Shown: positions 54,930-64,000 of the stretch, piece after piece | Layout: each line of letters opens with the position of its first letter | How positions within the stretch are numbered: the first letter of the stretch is position 1 | Assembly: GCA_963666205.1 (NCBI GenBank) | Contig: OY762654.1 | Location: forward strand, 992,001-1,056,000 | Origin: Synergistales bacterium | GTDB lineage: Bacteria > Synergistota > Synergistia > Synergistales > JAFGMB01 | Reading direction: 5' to 3' | DNA length: 64,000 nucleotides | The notes under the pieces: generated by a model | The model's database searches: none | Told to the model about the DNA's origin: nothing | What the model saw: the letters and a program-made list of their open reading frames with translations, nothing else | Translations under genes and position numbers: made by a program

Positions 54930-56294
54930 TCAGGATCTCCAATAATCACATACCAGGTCTTCCAGCCTTACCAGGTTAATATCCTCTGATGATTCCAACC
55001 CCTTGAAACCTGACCTGGAGAATATATAAAATACCGTTCTGCTGCAATCCCTTCCGACTACTTTCCGGATCTTGTCAGCCTTACCTGCCAGATCCATGAA
55101 AACCCTTGAATTTGCCGGCTCACGAGTCCATTTACATTCACCAAGCACCAGGGTCTCGCCCTTTACAGCCACTATATCAACCTCATCCTCACCATCCCAC
55201 CACCTGCCCATACCTTCAGGGTTTATCCAATCTTTCAGAACCTGCCTGCAGATCTTCTCCCAGGTAAAGGAAGTATGCATAGAAAGAGTGGATGAGATCT
55301 TTTCCTGGACATCAGACCCTCTCTCCCTATAGATAAGTTCCTGATCGTCCAGCAGATACCTGAAATAAAAACGCAGATACTCATCCTCGATGAAGTACAG
55401 GGGGATCTTTTTAGGTCTTTTCAGGGAGAAGGGAAGTTCCTTGCGGATCAGTCCAAGCTCAAGGAGATTCCTCAGGTAAGTTGAAATGTTCTGATGGGGA
55501 ATACCAGTGATCTGTGCTATTTCGGATGCCCTGGTCCTGCCCTTTGCAATTGTCCTCAGGATCGAAAAATATGAAGTTGGATCCTTTTTGAACTCCTCCA
55601 TAACCAGAAAACGGCCCTCTTCCACTAGAAATTCACCAGGGCTCAGCATCGATTCCTTCAGTGCATTATTAAAAGAACCGTGTCCAGACATCTTCTTGAG
55701 ATAAAGAGGAATTCCCCCAACTGCAGAATATGTTTTTACCTGGTCTTCCATGTTCAGGTCAGGTAAAAATTTTCTTGCCTGCAGAAATCCCATAGGATCG
55801 ATACGGTATTGCCCTGTTCTTCTGCCATATATGGGACTGCTCTCTGCCAGGGTGATTCTTTCCATCATGCCGATAAAGGAACCGCAAAGCACCATCATCA
55901 CCGGCAGTTTACTGAATACCTGATCCCACCATCTCTGAAAAAGGGAAAGAAAGGAATCATCCTTGATGGGAATATACTGAAATTCGTCCCATACGATAAC
56001 CAGTTTTTCTCTGGATAATTTGATCATCTTTTCCAGAAGGGAGAACATCTCATCCCATTTAGTGACTTCCAGAGACAAAGGCAGTTCTGCTTTTTCTTTA
56101 AGGGGAATAGAGAACCTGTTGATCAGCTGCTGCGGTTCAGACATATCAGCAGTCAGGAAAAGAGCTCCGGGAAATGTGTTCTCAAGGAGGAAAGTCTTCC
56201 CTACCCTTCTCCTGCCATATATAACGACCAGCTCTGCATTTTCAGACCTGAACTTTTTTTCAAGAAATTCTTTCTCCTGTATCCGATCTATCAT
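54930..56294 (-). CDS. Archaeal-type ATPase with DUF234 (wHTH + PD-(D/E)XK-like) domain
   Basis: YGRRRVGKT, VWDEFQ, LCGS, YGRRT, GGIPLYL, EVDIVA...LGECKW; start at MIDRIQE. Confidence 0.92.
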   Translation of the reverse strand: MIDRIQEKEFLEKKFRSENAELVVIYGRRRVGKTFLLENTFPGALFLTADMSEPQQLINRFSIPLKEKAELPLSLEVTKWDEMFSLLEKMIKLSREKLVIVWDEFQYIPIKDDSFLSLFQRWWDQVFSKLPVMMVLCGSFIGMMERITLAESSPIYGRRTGQYRIDPMGFLQARKFLPDLNMEDQVKTYSAVGGIPLYLKKMSGHGSFNNALKESMLSPGEFLVEEGRFLVMEEFKKDPTSYFSILRTIAKGRTRASEIAQITGIPHQNISTYLRNLLELGLIRKELPFSLKRPKKIPLYFIEDEYLRFYFRYLLDDQELIYRERGSDVQEKISSTLSMHTSFTWEKICRQVLKDWINPEGMGRWWDGEDEVDIVAVKGETLVLGECKWTREPANSRVFMDLAGKADKIRKVVGRDCSRTVFYIFSRSGFKGLESSEDINLVRLEDLVCDYWRS

Positions 56295-56314
56295 ATGCGC
56301 ACCCCCAAAATCAA

Positions 56315-56357
56315 AAAATACAGAAGATATATTCTGCAAATATATCTTCTGTATTTT
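56315..56357. promoter_or_regulatory. Perfect 19-bp inverted repeat upstream of the ATPase-DUF234 gene
   Basis: AAAATACAGAAGATATATT-ctgca-AATATATCTTCTGTATTTT, ending about 20 nt before the start codon. Confidence 0.65.
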
Positions 56358-56384
56358 AAGGGCTGCTCTTATAAATTGCAAATA

Positions 56385-56770
56385 GTCCTTTCGGTGCGCT
56401 CTCTGCGGTAAACCAGCTTTTGCCTTAGGTTTTATGTTTTCCTCAGATATTCCTCCGTACCCTCCGCAGTAAAAGTGTCTACTGTTTTCAGGTTTTATGT
56501 TTCCCTCTGTGCCCTCCAGGTCTAATCTTTACCATGGCACAAAGCTGCGCTTTCGTGCCTCCACAAAACCTTAAAGTTAAGATGTAATCTATCTGAACTG
56601 TCAAAAAAGGAATAAATCCTGAATATTATGTCAAAGAAGTCTTGTTTTCCTCATGTTTTACCTCTGCGGTACTCTGCGTGACCCCTGCGCCCTCTGCGGT
56701 AAAACAGGTTTTGACTTTGACCTGGGTTTCCCTCCGTGGTGAAAGGGTTTTAACGGTTCAGCTTTACGGG
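56385..56770. repeat. Mosaic repeat block 4
   Basis: Half REP-like GTCCTTTCGGTGCGCT, 9-mer arrays, GGCAC hairpin at 56536, CGGTTCAGCTTTACGGG module. Confidence 0.85.
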
Positions 56771-58905
56771 GTATCTCCCCTTCGGTAATTCCCGCTCAGG
56801 TAATCATACAACCCATACACCCGCACCGGATCCTCCAATACCCTGCCCCCCATATCCGCACAGTACCTCTCCAGTTCCTGGTATAGATTCTTCCCCAGCA
56901 CATCCGGGTTAAGCTGCCTCAGAAGCTGTTCCGGGGTCTGCCAGGCACCGGGCTGACGGGCAGCATAGTAATTCCATGTAGACAGAAGGGTGAATTCCGA
57001 AGTCCATGTGTGGGCACTTTCCCTGCCGAACCAGTAATCCGCCGGTATCTCCAGATACATGCCAGCATTGCTGTAACTTTTGTCCATGGTCAGGTTATCC
57101 GTTCTGGCGATCCAGAATCCCACACCAAGGTTGTTCCACCACCTGGTCGCAGAAAACCTGGCACCCCAGTCACCGTCTATAAAGACACCGTACTCTCCAG
57201 TAAGGTCAAGGTCATAAACAGGATCATGATAACCGGCCTGGGCCCAGTACTCCCACCACCACTCATCATCCGGATAACCTCTTCCCACGGTTATCCTGCC
57301 CGTTCCTCCGAATGTCACCGGCTTATCAGCCAGGGAAGCGAAACCCTCGGGGTCCCTTTCATGGACCACGCTCATCCGGCCCCCTACCCACCATCGGCCG
57401 TCATCGCTGTAAAACCTGGCCCATGCATTTCCGCCGAACCACTGGGCATCCAGCCACCCGGCCTCACCCAGGGCAAAGAACCTGTCGTTTATCTTGTAAA
57501 GGTAACTGAGAACACCCTTCCATATGCGGGTTTCGTCATTGGTCTCGGGTTCCCAGTAAATATCTATATCGTTATCGATGGGCTGGCGGATATCCATAAT
57601 GGCCTCCCAGCCATGGCTCGACCTCATGCGGTAGATCCAGTCAACACTCCAGCGGTCCATATAATCTTCCTGGAGGGTCCTGTCGATGCGGGGTTCGTAG
57701 ACAAGCATGGCCTTGAATTCCGAATTGCCCTTATGTCCCGACCTGCCAGGACCATAGTGGACAGGCCACTTGTCACGGAAAAGATCATCCCGGACCCAGG
57801 TGATTTCAGCCCCGGCCGCATCGGTTGCACTTATGTCGCCAAGGCGCAGTAGACCGCACTGGTAACCGGGAACTTCAAGAACACTGATGGCCTCGCCTCG
57901 AAGCCTTGGCACCAGGAAAAGGCTTTCCGTATCCCATGGAAGAAGCAGGGAAGTAAGGGTCATAACCCGGGCCATGGCCTCAGCCTGGGACGTATAGCCG
58001 ATATTCTCGTAGGCCACAAGGACTCTCCTGTCACCGATGAACACCTCCACATCCCGAACACCGACCCTGTTTCCGACATACTCCACAATCTGCTCTGCAA
58101 GACCTTCCAGGTCAGTTTTCTCCCAGTCGGGAAGGGTTACATCTGAAGATTCGGGAAGTGCATATTTCTTTTTATTTTTCCCGAAAAAGGGCTTCGTGAG
58201 GTCAAAATTGTATGAAAGGCCGAAACACCACTCCTCACCCCTCTGATAACTCAGGGAAGCATCCACACCCCAGGGGGTCTTCGCCACAAATCCCGCATTT
58301 ACCTTTGAATCGACATCCTCCGCGATGATCCGTCTGGAACCTATAGTATCCTGGCTGTAATCCAGAGGGCTGTACTCAGCCTTGACCTCAAGCCAGTCAT
58401 AGGGCTGCCATGAAAGGCCGCCGAAAAAGCCGTTAAGTCTGTCGCTGCCATAACCCCATGTGAGGGCAAGCCTGTCCCATTCCCAGGTGGCCACGCTGTA
58501 ATAGGCCTGCATTATCTTCGTACCCAGAATGTCCGTAACGCCAAAGGCAACACTGGGGCGGCACTCATCCTGTTGAAACATGAGAAATTTAAGGTCAATG
58601 GCCTTGTCCTTGTATTTTCCGTAACCTTCCGATATCTGTGGCCCCGTAGCGAAACGGGTAAGGCGCAGGTTCAGTTCCATCCAGGGAAAATAACCGAGGG
58701 AAATGTAGTATGGCCTGTAGGGCTCGAACCATGAAATGCCCACCCTGCCCATACCGTCACCGGGCACCTGTGCCGTGGGGTACTCCCACAGGCCGAGGAA
58801 TCCAGCATTGGAAGGACTTGCTCCGTATGAACTGCCTGTAAAGGCTGTAATAAGTAACAGAGAAAAGACAAAGACCGTTAAAAATATCCTGCGAAAAATG
58901 ACCAA
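56764..58905 (-). CDS. YjbH-domain outer-membrane protein (exopolysaccharide-related beta-barrel)
   Basis: Signal peptide, GFLGLWEYPTA, YKDKAIDLKF, VKAEYS, Trp/Tyr-rich beta strands. Confidence 0.82.
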   Translation of the reverse strand: MVIFRRIFLTVFVFSLLLITAFTGSSYGASPSNAGFLGLWEYPTAQVPGDGMGRVGISWFEPYRPYYISLGYFPWMELNLRLTRFATGPQISEGYGKYKDKAIDLKFLMFQQDECRPSVAFGVTDILGTKIMQAYYSVATWEWDRLALTWGYGSDRLNGFFGGLSWQPYDWLEVKAEYSPLDYSQDTIGSRRIIAEDVDSKVNAGFVAKTPWGVDASLSYQRGEEWCFGLSYNFDLTKPFFGKNKKKYALPESSDVTLPDWEKTDLEGLAEQIVEYVGNRVGVRDVEVFIGDRRVLVAYENIGYTSQAEAMARVMTLTSLLLPWDTESLFLVPRLRGEAISVLEVPGYQCGLLRLGDISATDAAGAEITWVRDDLFRDKWPVHYGPGRSGHKGNSEFKAMLVYEPRIDRTLQEDYMDRWSVDWIYRMRSSHGWEAIMDIRQPIDNDIDIYWEPETNDETRIWKGVLSYLYKINDRFFALGEAGWLDAQWFGGNAWARFYSDDGRWWVGGRMSVVHERDPEGFASLADKPVTFGGTGRITVGRGYPDDEWWWEYWAQAGYHDPVYDLDLTGEYGVFIDGDWGARFSATRWWNNLGVGFWIARTDNLTMDKSYSNAGMYLEIPADYWFGRESAHTWTSEFTLLSTWNYYAARQPGAWQTPEQLLRQLNPDVLGKNLYQELERYCADMGGRVLEDPVRVYGLYDYLSGNYRRGDTP

Positions 58906-58948
58906 CCACTCCCCGAAGAAAAGTCAAACAAAAAACGAACCAGAACAA

Positions 58949-59112
58949 TTTTACCGCAGAGGACGCAGAGAACGCAGAGGAAAGCGTAACCCTGAGTGAA
59001 CCATTTTTCTTTAACCTGCTGCGTATATATTTCCGAGTTCATCCGCTCAGACCTTATCCAACTTAGACTGAGGTTAATGGATGTCACATAATCATAGATT
59101 TGTGCCAGGAGA
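58949..59112. repeat. Mosaic repeat block 5 (reverse orientation)
   Basis: TTTTACCGCAGAGGACGCAGAGAACGCAGAGG and a reversed GGCAC hairpin at 59083-59106. Confidence 0.88.
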
Positions 59113-59149
59113 AACTCTAGCCATAAATTCTGGCTGGTTACTGGATTTA

Positions 59150-59527
59150 CTACAGCCCGTTGGCAAATCGGGTTATACCATCCTTAAGTTTGACTACATT
59201 GAAATTAATAAGCAATCCTAGTTTCTTGCCGCTCAGTTTCAAGTAAGAAAGGATCTGAGCCTTATGTATATCCGTTATTTTTTCAACGGATTTAAGTTCA
59301 ATAATAATCTCGTCCTCTACAACCAGATCCAGACGATAACCCAAGTCTATTTTGACTTCATCATAAATCACAGGAAGAACTTTCTGGGACTCAACTTTAA
59401 AGCCTCTTTTATTTAATTCATAACAAAGACAAGCTTCATATGAACTTTCGAGAAGACCCGGACCTAAAGCAGAATGTACTTTAACAGCGCTATCAATAAT
59501 TTCTTTGCTTATCTCATTTATCTCCAT
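59150..59527 (-). CDS. GxxExxY protein (PD-(D/E)XK nuclease-like fold)
   Basis: 125 aa; VHSALGPGLLESSYE, YRLDLVVE..IIIELKSV, AQILSYLK, GLLINF; visibly AT-rich. Confidence 0.95.
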   Translation of the reverse strand: MEINEISKEIIDSAVKVHSALGPGLLESSYEACLCYELNKRGFKVESQKVLPVIYDEVKIDLGYRLDLVVEDEIIIELKSVEKITDIHKAQILSYLKLSGKKLGLLINFNVVKLKDGITRFANGL

Positions 59528-59604
59528 AGGTCTGAATACCCCCCAATTCAGTCATGACAAAACCCTAACCATTCTACAACAAAATTGTTTTTGGTTTTGC
59601 CTCT

Positions 59605-60102
59605 AAGTCGTGCAAAACCGAGTCTGGTTTTGCGCAGTAGGAAAAAGATTTGCGGGTTTCCTCTGCGCTCTCTGCGCCCTCTGCGGTAAAACAGGTTTGA
59701 GGGTAGATTTTATAGTTTCCGTTTTTATTGTTTCCATGGCATAAATCTACGATTTCATGCCATACATCAACTTTGAGGTAAAGTAGTATCTAGTCCGAAC
59801 ATTCTGAACCCAGAATTGGGAAAATCCCATATTCCGCAATGTTTTAAGCTTTTCCTCCGCGGTACTCTGCGCTCCCTCTGTGTCCTCTGCGGTAAAACAG
59901 GTTTGAGGGTAGATTTTATAGTTTCCGTTTTTATTGTTTTCATGGCACAAATCTACGATTTCGAGCCTCCCCAAAACCTTTATCTTCGTAGGATATGGTC
60001 TGTCCGGACAAATATCACATGTTATTCATGAACAGTTATACCAAGGTTTTACGCCTTCCTCCGTGGTAAAAGGGTTATAACGGTTCAGCTTCACGGGTTT
60101 TA
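59605..60102. repeat. Mosaic repeat block 6
   Basis: Hairpin at 59610, 9-mer arrays at 59657 and 59865, near-identical about 78-bp tandem copies at 59679 and 59885, GGCAC/GGCAT hairpins at 59738 and 59944. Confidence 0.92.
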
Positions 60103-60142
60103 CTCTTGAAAAAGGAAACTTCATGTTTCAAAGTAAACCATT

Positions 60143-60724
60143 TTATTTTACTCTCATTACAACTCCGCCATTGCCCCCAACATTTGCTGGATTTTCCGAT
60201 GCTATAAATAAACTCTTCGAAGGATCATCAAGATTCTCGCTCAGGGAACCATCATAGATCCCGCTTTCGGGAGACATCCTTTCCAGCTGTTTTCTGATCG
60301 AATAATCCGCATAGGTATTAGTAACATTGGCTGCAACATAAATATGAACATCTGGAGTGGCATAGGAAGGATCGCTTCCCGGCCCGGAAACATAGATAAA
60401 GTACGGGTTCTTTGAAGCATTATTCCAATCCTTTGGACCCGTTATACTGTGAGGTTCAGGTATACCCCTGTCCAGGTATTGGCTCAGGCTGTTTATGCTA
60501 ATTACACCCCAACCCTGCTCACTCTGGGAAAACCACTGCTGATTATCAGCATAGTACATAACTACTGCAGTCTTGAGAACTTCCAGGTTTGAGACTATCT
60601 TTGTCGCCTCGCTCTTACTGGTCGCGCTTCCGATTGTGATCATAAGAGAACCTGAGAGAATGCCTATAATGATGATTACAATGAGGATCTCTATAAGGGA
60701 AAAACCTCTGCTGCGCTTTTTCAA
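60143..60724 (-). CDS. Type IV pilin / prepilin-type N-terminal methylation protein
   Basis: MKKRSRG|FSLIEILIVIIIIGILSG class III signal, followed by SKSEATKIVSNL..LKTA..MYYAD. Confidence 0.9.
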   Translation of the reverse strand: MKKRSRGFSLIEILIVIIIIGILSGSLMITIGSATSKSEATKIVSNLEVLKTAVVMYYADNQQWFSQSEQGWGVISINSLSQYLDRGIPEPHSITGPKDWNNASKNPYFIYVSGPGSDPSYATPDVHIYVAANVTNTYADYSIRKQLERMSPESGIYDGSLSENLDDPSKSLFIASENPANVGGNGGVVMRVK

Positions 60725-60917
60725 CTCTCAATTACCTCCCTGGCTGATTAGTATGTGGGATCTTGAACACCATTGAATAGTGTACAGACCTGTTTTCTAA
60801 CCACCAGGGCAAAAAAGCCTGTTTTCCAGGGGACAGGAAGACCAATTTCCCAGGGACTTATGGACCATTTGTATTTCTCATTCGCTCAAGTCCCCCATAC
60901 CTGGGTGTATTTAGCCT

Positions 60918-61520
60918 TATCGGTGCGCTGGAGCGCACCCTGCAAAACTTTATCTTACCGGGCCGAAGGTCCGCCCGTCCTCGATTTGTTTAGTGGGTTT
61001 TGGCGGCTTTCCTCCGTGGTAGAAAGGTTTACGGTTCTAAGGTTCCAATCGTGCAAAATAGTATCACCGTTTTGCGCAGCATGTATTATAACAAGTGGTT
61101 ATGACTTTCCTCCGTGCTACTCCGTGACCTCCGTGGTAGATAGGTTTTAGCGTTTGGGCTTTACGGGTTTTCATGGCACAAATCTACGATTTCGTGCCTC
61201 CCCAAAACCTTTATCTTCGTAGGATATGGTCTGTCCGGACAAATATCGGATGTTATTCCTGTTCAGGTATACCAAGGTTTTACGCCTTCCTCCGTGTCCT
61301 CCGTGGTGAAAGGGTTATAACGGTTCAGCTTTATGGGTTTCCATGGCACAAATCTTCGATTTCGTGCCTCTCAAAAACCTCAATCTTAGTAGTATTGGAT
61401 CTTGCAAAACATAACCAAAGATTAGTCGCAGCATATTTATACAAAAGGGGTTAAGCTTTCCTCTGCGCTCTCTGCGCCCTCTGCGGTAAAACAGGTTTTG
61501 ACTCTGATTTTGACTTTGGT
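60918..61520. repeat. Mosaic repeat block 7
   Basis: REP-like GGTGCGCTGGAGCGCACC at 60922, hairpins at 61051, 61175 and 61345, 9-mer array at 61461. Confidence 0.9.
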
Positions 61521-61526
61521 TTTGAT

Positions 61527-61558
61527 AAAAAAAGAGGATAGCCTTTCGGCTACCCTCT
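61527..61558 (-). terminator. Rho-independent terminator
   Basis: AGAGGGTAGCC-GAAA-GGCTATCCTCT followed by a T run on the minus strand. Confidence 0.75.
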
Positions 61559-61579
61559 CTCAATTATCTTCTCAGCTTA

Positions 61580-62137
61580 TTACTTCAGCAGCCACACCAG
61601 CGGTAAAGCCAGCAGACCCATCAGAGGGCTTACAGCCCCGGCGTTACAACCGCCGCCACCGCCACCACCGGAAGTCTCTTCTTCTGCATTTACAAGATAG
61701 ACCTGGGAAGTTGAAAAATACAGAGAAGGATCTGTTATTGTGGCAACTCCATTCACGACCTCGATAAAATCATAATAATCAGAATGATTCTGGATCAATA
61801 TACCATCGGGATCAAGACCGGTACCCCTCACATCAATGGTTACTGTTCCAACAGGCGTAGTATCGTAGACTGCTTCCACACCCGCAAGGACGACGATCGT
61901 ATAAGTTCCGCTTACCGGCATATTAATATGATCACTGGTCACGCTGGAACTTAAAATACAAGAGGCACAGGAGTCCGTATCTGGAGAAAATATGATAGTC
62001 CCTGGATCAATGGACGTGTAAATCTCCGTATCGACATGTCCAACATGGCCTATATCATGACCTACCACAGCCATACCTACCGACGCAAAAACAAGAACAA
62101 GTGCTGCAGAAACTGCAAAAAGAACAACTTTTTTCAT
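61580..62137 (-). CDS. Synerg-CTERM sorting-signal surface protein
   Basis: N-terminal signal peptide and C-terminal SGGGGGGGCNAG..PLMGLLALPLVWLLK. Confidence 0.88.
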   Translation of the reverse strand: MKKVVLFAVSAALVLVFASVGMAVVGHDIGHVGHVDTEIYTSIDPGTIIFSPDTDSCASCILSSSVTSDHINMPVSGTYTIVVLAGVEAVYDTTPVGTVTIDVRGTGLDPDGILIQNHSDYYDFIEVVNGVATITDPSLYFSTSQVYLVNAEEETSGGGGGGGCNAGAVSPLMGLLALPLVWLLK

Positions 62138-62308
62138 GAATATATCCCCCTCCAGAAGAGAAATGATAAAAAATCAGTTATAACGTATACAGAAACGAAC
62201 CAACCCGGATTATAAACCTAACAACTTTATAGAGCAATATTAAAAAGATCTGAATACCGGAAATGTTACATTAGACCTATCCACCACAAAGGAAATATTT
62301 AAAAACAT

Positions 62309-63435
62309 GTTTAACCGCAGAGGACGCAGAGAAAACCGGGAGGAAAGCATAAAAACATCGCTATGTAGATTTTATTAATCTCCTGTTTTATATATACATG
62401 ACCTGATCCTACTAAGATAAAGGTTGATGTATGGCATCAAATCATCGATTTGTGCCAGGAAGCAAATATTTACAGTGGGCATCGAAGAAAATAACCTGGT
62501 TTTTTACCTGGAATATTTTAAATTGACTTAATTTTTATGTTCCATCATGTGATACCAGCGGCAGAAAAAGGTTCTCTTTTCTGCCGGCAGTCAACCTTAA
62601 AAAACAAAGAAATATTGTAATAAAACCGTAGAGTCAAAAACATTGCCCAAATTAAGTTTCAGTACTTGGGTTCCCTCTGCGCTCTCTGCGCCCTCTGCGG
62701 TTAGCTTAGGGTTAATAGGGGTAAAAGGTTTACGGTTCAGGTTTACGGGACCAATCGTGCAAAATAGTTCCATCATTTTGCGCAGCATAACAAGGAGTGT
62801 TAAGGGCCGAATGTCCGGCCAACCCGGCTTTAAGTTTTTTAGGAAGATCTTTGACGGAGGTTTTTGGCGGGTTTCCTCTGCGGTAAAAGAAAGATACTGA
62901 ATTTGTTTTTGACTTTGGTTTTATTGGTTAAGAGGTTTTCCTCTGTGACCTCTAGTTCGAAAGCACTACCTGGCACAAATCTACGATTTGGTGCCATACA
63001 TCAACCTCAGTCTAAGTAGCATAAGATCTGAGTGGACGTAACATCGGAATAAACACGCAGTATATGGATAAAATGGTTTGACGGGTTTCCTCAGGGTCTA
63101 CCTCTGCGAAACTCTGCGTAACCTCAGCGTCCTCTGCGGTAAAACAGCTTTTGATTTTGACCTGGTTTCCCTCCGTGTCCTCCGTGGTAGATAGGTTTTA
63201 GCGTTTTGGCTTTACGGGTTCCCATGGCACAAATCTCCGATTTTGTGCCTCCGGAAAAACTTGTTCACCAGGTTTTGTAAGTTTCAGGTTCTCGTTCTTA
63301 ATCGTGAAAAATCTAGTCTGATTTTTCGCAGCATGTTTCTTAAATCATTTGGTCTCGTTTTCCTCTGCGCTTCCTCTGCGCTCTCTGCGCCCTCTGCGGT
63401 AAAATAGCTTTTGACTTTGACCTGGTTTCCCCTCC
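62309..63435. repeat. Mosaic repeat block 8 (reverse 62309-62460, forward 62670-63435)
   Basis: Reversed 9-mer array and GGCAC hairpin, an AT-rich gap, then forward 9-mer arrays and hairpins at 62757, 62972, 63226 and 63304. Confidence 0.88.
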
Positions 63436-63653
63436 TGCAAAGTTATCAGTCTTGCATACATACGGTTAAAATCAAGGTCTGACCCCATTCTTTTTTTATA
63501 CTGATAATTCTTTTCATAAATTTCACAGGACCTTTTTCCCACTTTTTTCGGGTCAGGATCTGTATTTAATCTTGACCCTATGGTAAAACTGAATAAAAGT
63601 TCAAATATTTAATATTCCATACTTTTAAGAATATACATTATAATGTTTTTCTC

Positions 63654-63682
63654 TTGACTTTCCTTATTTAACTGCACATAAT
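63654..63682 (+). promoter_or_regulatory. Sigma70-type promoter
   Basis: TTGACT-17 nt-CATAAT upstream of the gene starting at 63837. Confidence 0.5.
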
Positions 63683-63836
63683 GAAATCATTGAGAGTATC
63701 ACGAGTTAGAGAACAAACCCTTCCCCTGTAAAACTATTACAATTAAATCTGAAGAGTTAGACAGTTGAAGTCAAAATTCAATGACCTTTTCTTTCTTACT
63801 TAGAGTAATTACACTTAAACGTCGGGAGTGTCTAAC

Positions 63837-64000
63837 GTGCATTTATGTTTTCGTCGTGGCATGGTATTTGCCATAGCCTTGTTCTTGTTACTGTTTTTAT
63901 CCATACCATCCTTTGCAGCAGGTGAAGGTGTATCAGGAGTTACCGGACCATCCTCTGCCCCATCGGGGTCAACCGGCAGTGATGCCGGACCTGGAGGCAT
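63837..64000 (+). CDS. Secreted Gly/Ser-rich protein, N-terminus only (3' truncated; surface protein/autotransporter-like)
   Basis: GGGAG RBS, GTG start, MHLCFRRGMVFAIALFLLLFLSIPSFA|AGEGVSGVTGPSSAPSGSTGSDAGPGG. Confidence 0.75.
   Translation, partial: MHLCFRRGMVFAIALFLLLFLSIPSFAAGEGVSGVTGPSSAPSGSTGSDAGPGG

Follow-up and report, generated by a model that had tools for sequence, protein, structure and literature searches.

A small gene of the GxxExxY family (59150-59527, minus strand), located in the 64,000-nt stretch of Synergistales DNA that we analyzed (hereafter the window), lies between two inverted arrays of short tandem repeats, and comparable arrays accompany many of its relatives. We lean, with slightly better than even confidence, toward the view that this repeat-armed cassette is a selfish unit composed of a nuclease and its cognate repeats, resembling a REPtron in how it works but not itself a REPtron. 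A literature search found no description of a repeat-armed GxxExxY cassette.

On the plus strand, the left arm (58949-58983) reads TTTTACC and then three CGCAGAG-NN units; in mRNA sense it is the antisense ('B') arm. The right arm (59657-59691), read on that strand, has three CTCTGCG units and then GGTAAAA and is the sense ('A') arm. A preliminary description of this DNA had reported inverted 35-bp copies differing at 2 positions, and a repeat search confirmed it: the 35-nt arms, 673 nt apart, are complementary at 33 of 35 positions (94%). Both differences set an A in the left arm against a G in the reverse complement of the right arm, occur where the 9-mers have their variable dinucleotides, and are, as had also been noted and as inspection of the sequence verified, G-U pairs on the minus (coding) strand and A-C mismatches on the plus strand. 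The stop codon lies 166 nt from the left arm (spacer 58984-59149) and the start codon 129 nt from the right arm (spacer 59528-59656), with the sense array upstream of the ORF and its inverted copy downstream. The cassette occupies the spacer between two genes co-oriented with it: a YjbH-family gene downstream (56764-58905, minus strand), whose start at 58905 is 43 nt from the end of the left arm, and an upstream gene (60143-60724, minus strand) with an N-terminal methylation (pilin-like) motif, unmatched in the sister species G001. The GxxExxY gene is indeed more AT-rich than its neighborhood, its GC content being 0.35-0.38 compared with 0.50-0.58 across YjbH and 0.445 genome-wide.

Both arms are parts of larger mosaic modules that are also present without the gene, and they belong to two different repeat-module families; for this reason their two G/A differences are not independent events. 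The left arm and its spacer form a composite module of ~165 nt (arm, ~100 nt, and a GGCAC-type hairpin at 59083-59111) that recurs, by alignment, at window position 62310 and at L001:2057, beside the second GxxExxY gene of this genome. On the right, a tandem pair of 97-nt modules (59665-59967), each an array with a GGCAT/GGCAC hairpin, stand 206 nt apart and are 92% alike; the second module has a degenerate array (59855-59891) and is missing from G001. The 31-nt core of the right arm is identical to five other copies elsewhere in the genome. The GGCAC-type hairpin does occur in opposite orientations on the two sides of the gene (59083-59111 and 59733-59761), as first described, yet its placement is not mirrored: on the left of the gene it is found on the inner side of the arm, on the right on the outer side. 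Because the arms are embedded in these modules they lie farther from the ORF than usual, and we counted the atypical distances of 129 and 166 nt, compared with the tight form of other copies, against the cassette reading. A unit without cargo was found at 62310-62705, with a sense-type arm (62316-62331), ~340 nt, and an antisense-type arm (62675-62699). Its arm spacing of 365 nt is repeated in a similar unit at L001:2057-2452.

The 125-aa product matched PF13366 (PDDEXK_3) over residues 5-121 with an E-value of 9.8e-44 (148.9 bits, cut-off 22) and TIGR04256 (GxxExxY) with an E-value of 2.8e-45 (153.4 bits, cut-off 35), and it matched no other Pfam or NCBIfam family. The G-x-x-E-x-x-Y motif is present as GLLESSY (residues 24-30). 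Residues G24, E27, Y30, D67, E77 and K79 were invariant in a 23-sequence alignment, and the predicted catalytic residues are intact. The predicted structure (pLDDT 91.9) has a PD-(D/E)XK-like fold, with Cas4 SSO0001 (E 3.5e-4, TM 0.43-0.54), lambda-type exonucleases and Hjc resolvases as its best Foldseek matches; the scores were weak, yet every match fell within the PD-(D/E)XK superfamily. Searching the sequences of the PDB with the profile of the family returned nothing at E ≤ 1. The PF13366/TIGR04256 family is very large: we found at least 8000 relatives, all at E ≤ 1e-10. Identity to relatives in other phyla is ~70%, and PF13366 is present in 2 of the 41 Synergistota genomes searched. A survey lists the function of the family as unknown (PMC3424549).

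We compared 80 related loci from about ten phyla and from archaea (Methanosarcinales). In 47 of the 80, the array nearest to the gene was in sense orientation on the upstream side and in antisense orientation on the downstream side. Inverted matches within one locus scored above the 99th percentile of shuffled controls for 58 of 77 loci, versus 208 of 909 pairs taken across loci. Arrays occurred at 6.69 per kb within 150 nt of the gene and at 0.215 per kb beyond 500 nt, a 31-fold difference; the median gap was 24 nt on the upstream side of the match start and 9 nt on the downstream side of the stop. Cargo-less arm pairs were seen in 14 of the 80 loci. Both neighbors were co-oriented with the gene in 53 of 65 loci, and the cassettes often abut the neighbors' stop and start. 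Where inverted sense-antisense array pairs 200-1300 nt apart enclosed a sizeable ORF, that ORF was almost always GxxExxY. No target-site duplication outside the arms was visible among the 47 listed loci, as would be looked for in a MITE or a TIR transposon.

The core sequence varies among copies of a single genome (CACAGAG, CACGGAG, CACAAAG, CGCAGAT and CAGGAT were all observed), and within each copy the two arms agree in core. Likeness between arms was 92.3% at core positions and 79.5% at non-core positions, and the number of units can differ between the arms. What is conserved is the mirror-oriented array of cores, not base pairing between the arms. Nor are the arms likely to be a site for a host factor, since cores change from copy to copy within one genome and yet match between the arms of any one copy. 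Proteins from loci that share a core were more similar than others, at 0.584 vs 0.558 across phyla and 0.742 vs 0.672 within phyla, a modest association among pairs that are not independent.

Arrays of this kind form a repeat family: the window contains 23 two-unit matches versus 0.06 expected, so the 35-nt match by itself needs no special explanation; it is the orientation and position of the arms that call for one. Twenty-nine of the 30 three-unit arrays lie within one 61-kb polysaccharide (EPS) region. The two gene-bearing genomes contain 30 and 39 such arrays, three genomes of the same family in which no gene was found contain 6-10, the remaining 36 genomes 0-4, and controls 0-5. Among the 26 arrays mapped over 39992-67171, in window coordinates, only 3 have the orientation of the left arm, and each of these has an oppositely oriented partner at a distance of 344-682 nt. 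This local count is only suggestive, and it is the family-wide pattern that shows the arrangement not to be chance. We also considered whether every operon spacer carries sense arrays after the stop and antisense arrays before the start, and rejected this rule because all arrays at window coordinates 84375-101475 have the same orientation; those among them that lie between minus-strand genes are thus antisense-only in mRNA sense. We likewise rejected the idea that the switch in orientation across the EPS core follows replication direction, as the turning points of the GC skew are near 0.075 and 1.68 Mb and none is at 1.06 Mb. The second GxxExxY copy, in the Wza-Wzz spacer, is immediately adjoined by arrays in direct, not inverted, orientation, which we counted against the cassette reading; so do we count the arrays that persist in the three same-family genomes and a second array type here (CACGGAG) with no matching gene.

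Presence and absence of the nuclease gene were observed to vary. The cassette interior is 99.1% identical between this genome (G000) and G001, in which YjbH, Wza and Wzz are 85-90% identical, and the second copy is missing from its site in G001. The Wza-Wzz spacers are mosaic, so their MAFFT alignment between the two genomes is unreliable and was used only to establish which modules are present. At one Flavobacterium intergenic site, the 29 resolved loci comprised 2 that were near-empty, 11 with cargo-less arm pairs, 10 with GxxExxY, 4 with a GIY-YIG gene plus 1 remnant, and 1 with a SUKH gene; the GIY-YIG gene (E 1e-18) is an alternative occupant to the GxxExxY gene. We observed no excised, circular or newly inserted forms of the cassette, which counts against the cassette reading. 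An integron cassette is a less likely reading: the outer GGTTAAA has some loose likeness to the core of an attC site, but none of the Pfam families listed for 12 window ORFs at 35.6-56.4 kb, for four ORFs near the cassette and for 14 of those within 20 kb past the window points to an integrase.

The arms could instead act in the operon transcript, pairing to loop out the ORF so that RNase III cuts the message or the message is shielded, with the pairing itself as the selected trait. In a predicted fold of the 841-nt minus-strand RNA, the arms pair in both the minimum-energy and the centroid structure (-259.8 kcal/mol, z -5.19), and the two local G-U differences and the position of the cassettes inside operons also agree with this explanation, as do precedents in Correia elements, with RNase III (PMC2649163), and in the ORF-bearing intervening sequence of Coxiella (PMC4990558). 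The preliminary description had read the G-U differences as a strand-specific signature and had named an absence of bias across many examples as evidence against it. Over 58 related loci, arm mismatches were of the G-U type in 64 cases and of the A-C type in 70 on the sense strand (p 0.67), with 145 transversions, and we therefore do not uphold that signature; the part of the proposal that survives is that a duplex enclosing the ORF is predicted to form. Ten cargo-less arm pairs at the Flavobacterium site were poorly paired (1 G-U, 8 A-C, 16 transversions), and the arms of the ortholog in G001, the nearest relative, have a G-G mismatch in addition to two G-U mismatches. A pure stem would not require a core conserved across phyla, and the unequal unit numbers of some arms and the direct arrays beside the second copy here also speak against RNA pairing. 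An Rfam scan of 56000-64000 matched no family and no rRNA, giving two sub-threshold matches to microRNA models only. Metatranscriptome contigs cover 59042-59461 with one difference each, and none bridges an arm; a scan of 58700-60900 found 6 promoter-like sites versus 4.1 expected and 1 terminator-like site versus 1.7 expected. We consider selection for RNA pairing unlikely and regard the long duplex as a physical by-product, which may nevertheless affect the operon transcript.

It could also be argued that the arrays are a REP-like intergenic element useful to the host (a message stabilizer, attenuator or binding site) and belong to the target, with GxxExxY genes merely lodging inside. Solo arrays and cargo-less pairs do outnumber genes here (30 three-unit arrays and 2 genes), arrays remain in related genomes without the gene, cargo-less pairs are as common as filled sites in the Flavobacterium series (11 and 10 of 29), the arms here are part of modules that occur without the gene, and REP arrays are described as flanking EPS genes in Thauera (PMC3733652). 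We nonetheless judge this quite improbable: arrays are concentrated beside the gene relative to the rest of the same loci, inverted pairs around a sizeable ORF hold almost only GxxExxY, and a host factor does not predict a core type that varies among the copies of one genome and tracks protein similarity. Finally, two members of an abundant local repeat might by chance be oppositely oriented around an unrelated gene, as might be supposed from some 30 arrays in 61 kb, arms from two different module families, and a right arm shared with five other copies. The recurrence of the same layout across phyla and the scarcity of left-arm-oriented arrays, each with an opposite partner, make this explanation highly improbable, and we disfavor it.

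Under the selfish-cassette reading, the compact unit consists of an arm, a small PD-(D/E)XK nuclease ORF and an inverted arm, lodges between co-oriented genes, and occurs in numerous bacterial phyla as well as in some archaea. At its outer end each arm carries TTnACC, and the rest is made up of two to four tandem 7-nt cores (CRCARAG-like) with variable spacers between them. We infer that a sequence-specific protein binds the arms as DNA, the encoded nuclease being the most economical candidate, and that through breaks or synapsis at the arms recombination may copy or exchange the cassette, and likewise cargo-less pairs, in the style of homing or of REPtrons. In this genome, the cassette would have been exchanged recently with the sister lineage, and mosaic intergenic repeat modules would have multiplied within the one EPS region. 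The agreement of the arms within each copy could also come from selection for single-stranded DNA pairing or from inter-arm conversion, and the 99% identity of the cassette could reflect ordinary exchange of a homologous segment rather than activity of the cassette. More generally, and with a confidence somewhat short of even, we suggest that GxxExxY proteins are the enzymes of an undescribed and very widespread selfish DNA, each nuclease recognizing the tandem-core arms of its own gene and driving copying or exchange of cassettes and cargo-less pairs; such a system would be a PD-(D/E)XK counterpart of RAYT/REPIN that crosses bacterial phyla and archaea and lodges in operons. The conserved, copy-specific DNA motif framing the gene offers a first concrete candidate substrate for PF13366/TIGR04256. 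If nuclease and arms are partners, RAYT/REPIN would be joined by a second gene-plus-repeat system with a different mechanism, one that would account for many of the short repeats between genes, of the breaks in assemblies and of the small ORFs that are spurious. Because cassettes and cargo-less arm pairs sit between co-transcribed genes, they would also be relevant to operon expression; those in the window directly precede polysaccharide-export genes.

The cassette shares features with several known systems. Like free-standing homing endonuclease genes and small GIY-YIG cassettes, it places a small nuclease gene in the spacer of conserved co-oriented genes and shows presence/absence polymorphism, both in G001 and in the Flavobacterium series. 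Homing endonuclease genes are not known to carry inverted arms built of repeats. The 23S rRNA intervening sequences, such as the 428-nt example described in Coxiella (PMC4990558), are likewise selfish elements of similar size with an ORF. They lie in an rRNA helix, whereas the unit here lies between protein-coding genes; the ORF described there is of the S23p family, compared with PF13366 here; and the arm mismatches here lack an RNA-pairing signature. Correia elements of Neisseria, as described in PMC2649163, and bacterial MITEs are also inverted-repeat-bounded, intergenic and co-transcribed with their neighbors; in that description Correia RNA can bind RNase III, and cargo-less forms exist. 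Correia elements as described there have no gene, and the unit here carries one; it also differs from these elements and MITEs in that its arms are arrays of tandem units and no target-site duplication was found outside the arms.

The closest resemblance in layout is to REPtrons, described as a RAYT gene with inverted REP/REPIN sequences (PMC3337134, PMC3733652, PMC3116915). In both, a small enzyme gene lies between inverted short repeats, cargo-less inverted doublets of the repeat occur in intergenic DNA (here 62310-62705 and L001:2057-2452), each gene copy has its own repeat variant, and clustered and tandem arrangements are found. The preliminary comparison to a RAYT-like mobile unit therefore holds as an analogy, given the family-wide arms, cargo-less pairs, polymorphism and patchy distribution, but not as an identification. 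The enzyme belongs to the PD-(D/E)XK nucleases and not to the IS200-like Y1 HUH tyrosine transposases, and the arms are tandem 7-nt-core arrays ending in TTnACC rather than the GTAG/CGTC-tagged palindromes described in PMC3733652; at this locus they are three 9-mers ending in TTTTACC, and the GTAG/CGTC tag is absent from both arm ends. The repeats here also differ from those of REPtrons in being restricted to a single 61-kb region. In a published description most RAYTs are single-copy genes passed on vertically (bioRxiv 10.1101/2022.05.22.493013), whereas the GxxExxY gene is multi-copy, patchy in distribution and common to several phyla.

The arms that bracket the GxxExxY nuclease gene were recovered by repeat search at 58949-58983 and 59657-59691 as two inverted 35-nt copies, 673 nt apart and complementary at 33 of 35 positions, each consisting of TTTTACC followed by three CGCAGAG-NN units. 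At both differences, which fall at variable NN positions, the left arm has A where the right arm's reverse complement has G; they read as G-U on the minus strand and as A-C on the plus. The enclosed ORF (59150-59527, minus strand) matched PF13366 (E 9.8e-44) and TIGR04256 (E 2.8e-45) over its full length, and its product retains the G24-E27-Y30 motif and D67/E77/K79 intact. GC is 0.35-0.38 in this gene versus 0.50-0.58 in YjbH and 0.445 genome-wide. In all of this the preliminary description, which had reported inverted arrays with two wobble-type differences around an AT-rich gene, was accurate. It had also placed a GGCAC-type hairpin in inverted form on each side; the opposite orientations (59083-59111 and 59733-59761) hold, but the hairpin lies inside the left arm and outside the right, so the flanks are not a single long mirror repeat. 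Directly before the gene start (59536-59555, minus strand), a small hairpin, CTGAAT-TGGGGGGT-ATTCAG, holds in its loop, as read by eye, the only G-rich Shine-Dalgarno-like run.

Both arms belong to a repeat family. A two-unit pattern matched 23 times in the window (0.06 expected), and 29 of the 30 three-unit arrays in the whole 2.95-Mb genome lay within C1:1032253-1093475 (contig coordinates), a polysaccharide locus with YjbH, Wza/Poly_export, Wzz, a sugar transferase and glycosyltransferases; the reversed control had no matches genome-wide. The left arm is part of a ~165-nt module, made up of arm, ~100 nt and hairpin, which is found again at window position 62310 and at L001:2057, L001 and L002 being stretches of the same genome past the window end; five other copies have exactly the 31-nt core of the right arm. 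Since the arms come from differing modules, the two G/A differences tell one module family from the other and do not count as separate substitutions that arose here. Interleaved with these arrays in the same region are others of a second type, in which TTTCACC precedes CACGGAG units (window 40253, 54608, 54889, 61110, 61290 and 63171, plus the equivalents of 84375-93744), and neither of the genome's two GxxExxY genes has arms matching this type. A 206-nt tandem duplication of an array-plus-hairpin module (59665-59761 and 59871-59967) is absent from G001, the sister species. Left of the central EPS operon (window 39992-67171) nearly all arrays point one way, and to its right (window-equivalent 84375-101475, L001/L002) all point the opposite way, so that almost all of them turn their TTTACC end towards the operon; no replication origin or terminus was evident at the switch from GC skew.

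The genome holds only two PF13366 genes. The second (L001:2499-2876, plus strand), between Wza and Wzz, has the order sense arm, 320 nt, antisense arm, gene, antisense arm, antisense arm (in the mRNA sense of the gene), so its immediate flanks are direct, not inverted. This arrangement, a cargo-less arm pair, the gene and an antisense arm, also occurs at three loci of relatives (L022, L026, L034).

Among 41 Synergistota genomes searched, PF13366 occurred in two, the window's own and that of G001, a member of the same genus, where the ortholog of the window gene adjoins YjbH. Between the two genomes, identity is 98.0% over 58942-59756, compared with 90.4% for YjbH, 86.8% for Wza and 84.9% for Wzz; the interior (58984-59656) differs by six substitutions and one indel (99.1%), and the left arm at 3 of 35 positions, each at NN. 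On the coding strand the G001 arms show two G-U and one G-G mismatch. Likeness ends at the left arm's outer end, where G001 has 311 additional bases, and its Wza-Wzz spacer has other repeat modules instead of the second copy. The comparison points to a recent lateral exchange of the cassette and to its polymorphism for presence or absence. A different copy elsewhere in G001 has CGCAAAG-type arms, the outer pair matching at 30 of 31 positions as read by eye. A pilin-like gene with an N-terminal methylation motif (60143-60724), upstream of the cassette, is unmatched in the syntenic G001 region, so the locus differs between the species beyond the repeats. Three-unit arrays numbered 30 and 39 in the two gene-bearing genomes, 6-10 in three same-family genomes without the gene and 0-4 in the remaining 36 (controls, 0-5).

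At least 8000 proteins scored at E <= 1e-10 in a search for the GxxExxY family, which is both very large and strikingly conserved; relatives labelled Thermoguttaceae, Deltaproteobacteria and Terriglobales show ~70% identity. The preliminary description had called for a survey of such genes for inverted arrays on both flanks, and we examined 80 loci in named genomes from about ten phyla and Methanosarcinales; they were chosen as the best tblastn matches rather than at random, many lie in metagenome bins, and gene starts are match coordinates. Using a neutral pattern (at least two C[AG]C[ACG][AG][AG]G units, 1-5 nt apart), the nearest arrays were sense upstream and antisense downstream at 47 of 80 loci; the others were sense only (11), antisense only downstream (6), antisense/antisense (5), sense/sense (3), antisense/sense (2), sense only downstream (1) or without arrays (5). 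By alignment, the same-locus inverted match exceeded the 99th percentile of shuffled flanks at 58 of 77 loci, as did 20 of 77 matches in direct orientation and 208 of 909 cross-locus pairs, pairwise statistics that ignore relatedness of the loci. Arrays had a density of 6.69/kb up to 150 nt from the gene versus 0.215/kb beyond 500 nt, with median gaps of 24 nt ahead of the match start and 9 nt past the stop. Where a sense and an antisense array, inverted and 200-1300 nt apart, enclosed a sizeable ORF, it was almost always GxxExxY. Both neighbours, judged from long ORFs and not a gene caller, were co-oriented with the gene at 53 of 65 loci, and gene-to-gene gaps had medians of 74 and 55 nt; the cassette thus occupies operon spacers. 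Around the arms of the 47 loci listed for this purpose, no target-site duplication was visible. At L088, L094 and L096 (Niabella, Prolixibacteraceae, Flavobacteriaceae) the gene lies within a long tandem series of up to ten arrays, with periods of about 85-170 nt, and not within one arm pair.

For one Flavobacterium locus, L058, we used its flanks (a hemN-like radical-SAM gene plus the gene following) to search 61 Flavobacterium genomes; 60 matched, 30 loci were fetched and 29 were resolved. The spacer was near-empty at two, one retaining just the two outer ends of the arms (TTTAACC-ttcc-GGTAAAA). At 11 it was filled by cargo-less arm pairs, either 91-110 nt long or in tandem, at 10 by a GxxExxY ORF between arms, at four, plus one remnant, by a GIY-YIG nuclease gene whose inverted repeats are of another kind (E 1e-18, 2.7e-16), and at one by a SUKH-family gene. 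Small nuclease genes thus share this spacer as a landing place. The 94-aa GIY-YIG gene is framed by its own hairpin-forming repeats (L140:2510-2794, L142:1154-1438, also L144 and L153; remnant in L151). A cargo-less arm pair also lay nearby at 14 of the 80 GxxExxY loci. In a contig of run X6, from another organism, window 58979 is joined to 59660 as a compact cargo-less pair, with left-arm-type and right-arm-type arrays and 37 other letters between.

The arms could instead be maintained as an RNA duplex selected in the message. In an 841-nt minus-strand RNA they were fully paired in the predicted minimum-energy and centroid folds (-259.8 kcal/mol, z -5.19), so that a transcript containing both arms is physically likely to form the duplex, and the suggestion that the transcript can loop out the ORF agrees with this prediction. 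Public RNA data for the locus consist of contigs, and scans for Rfam families, promoters and terminators near it gave no signal standing out. The G-U bias on the sense strand, put forward as the decisive test, did not appear: arm mismatches at 58 loci (2054 aligned positions) comprised 64 G-U-on-sense and 70 A-C-on-sense transitions (p 0.67) and 145 transversions. Ten cargo-less pairs from the Flavobacterium site, related and not independent sequences, gave 1 G-U, 8 A-C and 16 transversions in 161 positions. Arm-to-arm identity was 92.3% at core positions and 79.5% elsewhere, a difference that the core definition slightly favours. Because strand bias was absent, transversions were many and cores were more alike than the rest, the conserved feature is, judging from these alignments, a mirror-oriented array of cores and not a base-paired stem. 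We consider a selected duplex rather unlikely; the DNA-level and RNA-level readings are nonetheless compatible, since a DNA element may also fold in its message, as portions of PMC2649163 report for Correia elements.

Arms also occur without the gene, as they would if a host-useful REP-like element merely had the gene lodged inside it, a reading we hold to be quite improbable. The core varies among copies of one genome (CACAGAG, CACGGAG, CACAAAG, CGCAGAT, CACAGAT, CAGGAT, CGCGAAT) and each copy's two arms agree with each other (20 loci, 5 genomes), a pattern that speaks for a specificity residing in the cassette and against a host factor. In a set of 53 loci, protein similarity was higher for same-core pairs than for others across phyla (0.584 vs 0.558) and within phyla (0.742 vs 0.672), a modest association between non-independent pairs. 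Chance, beside the shuffled-flank comparison, is scarcely credible. From the observed architecture, its breadth, the copy-specific arms, the polymorphism and the absence of an RNA signature, we lean towards a selfish cassette whose arms would be arrays recognised at the DNA level, with its own nuclease as the most economical candidate for recognising them. The encoded protein (a confident model, pLDDT 91.9) has as nearest solved folds Cas4 SSO0001, lambda-type exonucleases and Hjc resolvases, with weak scores, and no sequence relative was found in the PDB. Recognition of the arrays by this candidate nuclease would lead to mobility via breaks and recombination; we infer the binding, the cleavage and the copying route.

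In portions of its text, a 2012 superfamily survey gives the family's function as unknown and notes multiple transfers (PMC3424549). We found no description of the arms in the main-text portions searched of the full-text literature on GxxExxY and PF13366/PDDEXK_3, and a full-text search returned no paper mentioning TIGR04256. As far as the sections consulted of the cited sources go, ORF-bearing rRNA intervening sequences resemble the cassette in outline only (PMC4990558), and a REPtron works alike (PMC3337134, PMC3733652). The proposed kinship with RAYT genes bracketed by REPs thus holds for the manner of working but not for enzyme class and repeat tag, the two defining points on which the cassette departs from a REPtron. 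Free-standing homing endonuclease genes are like it in placement and polymorphism.
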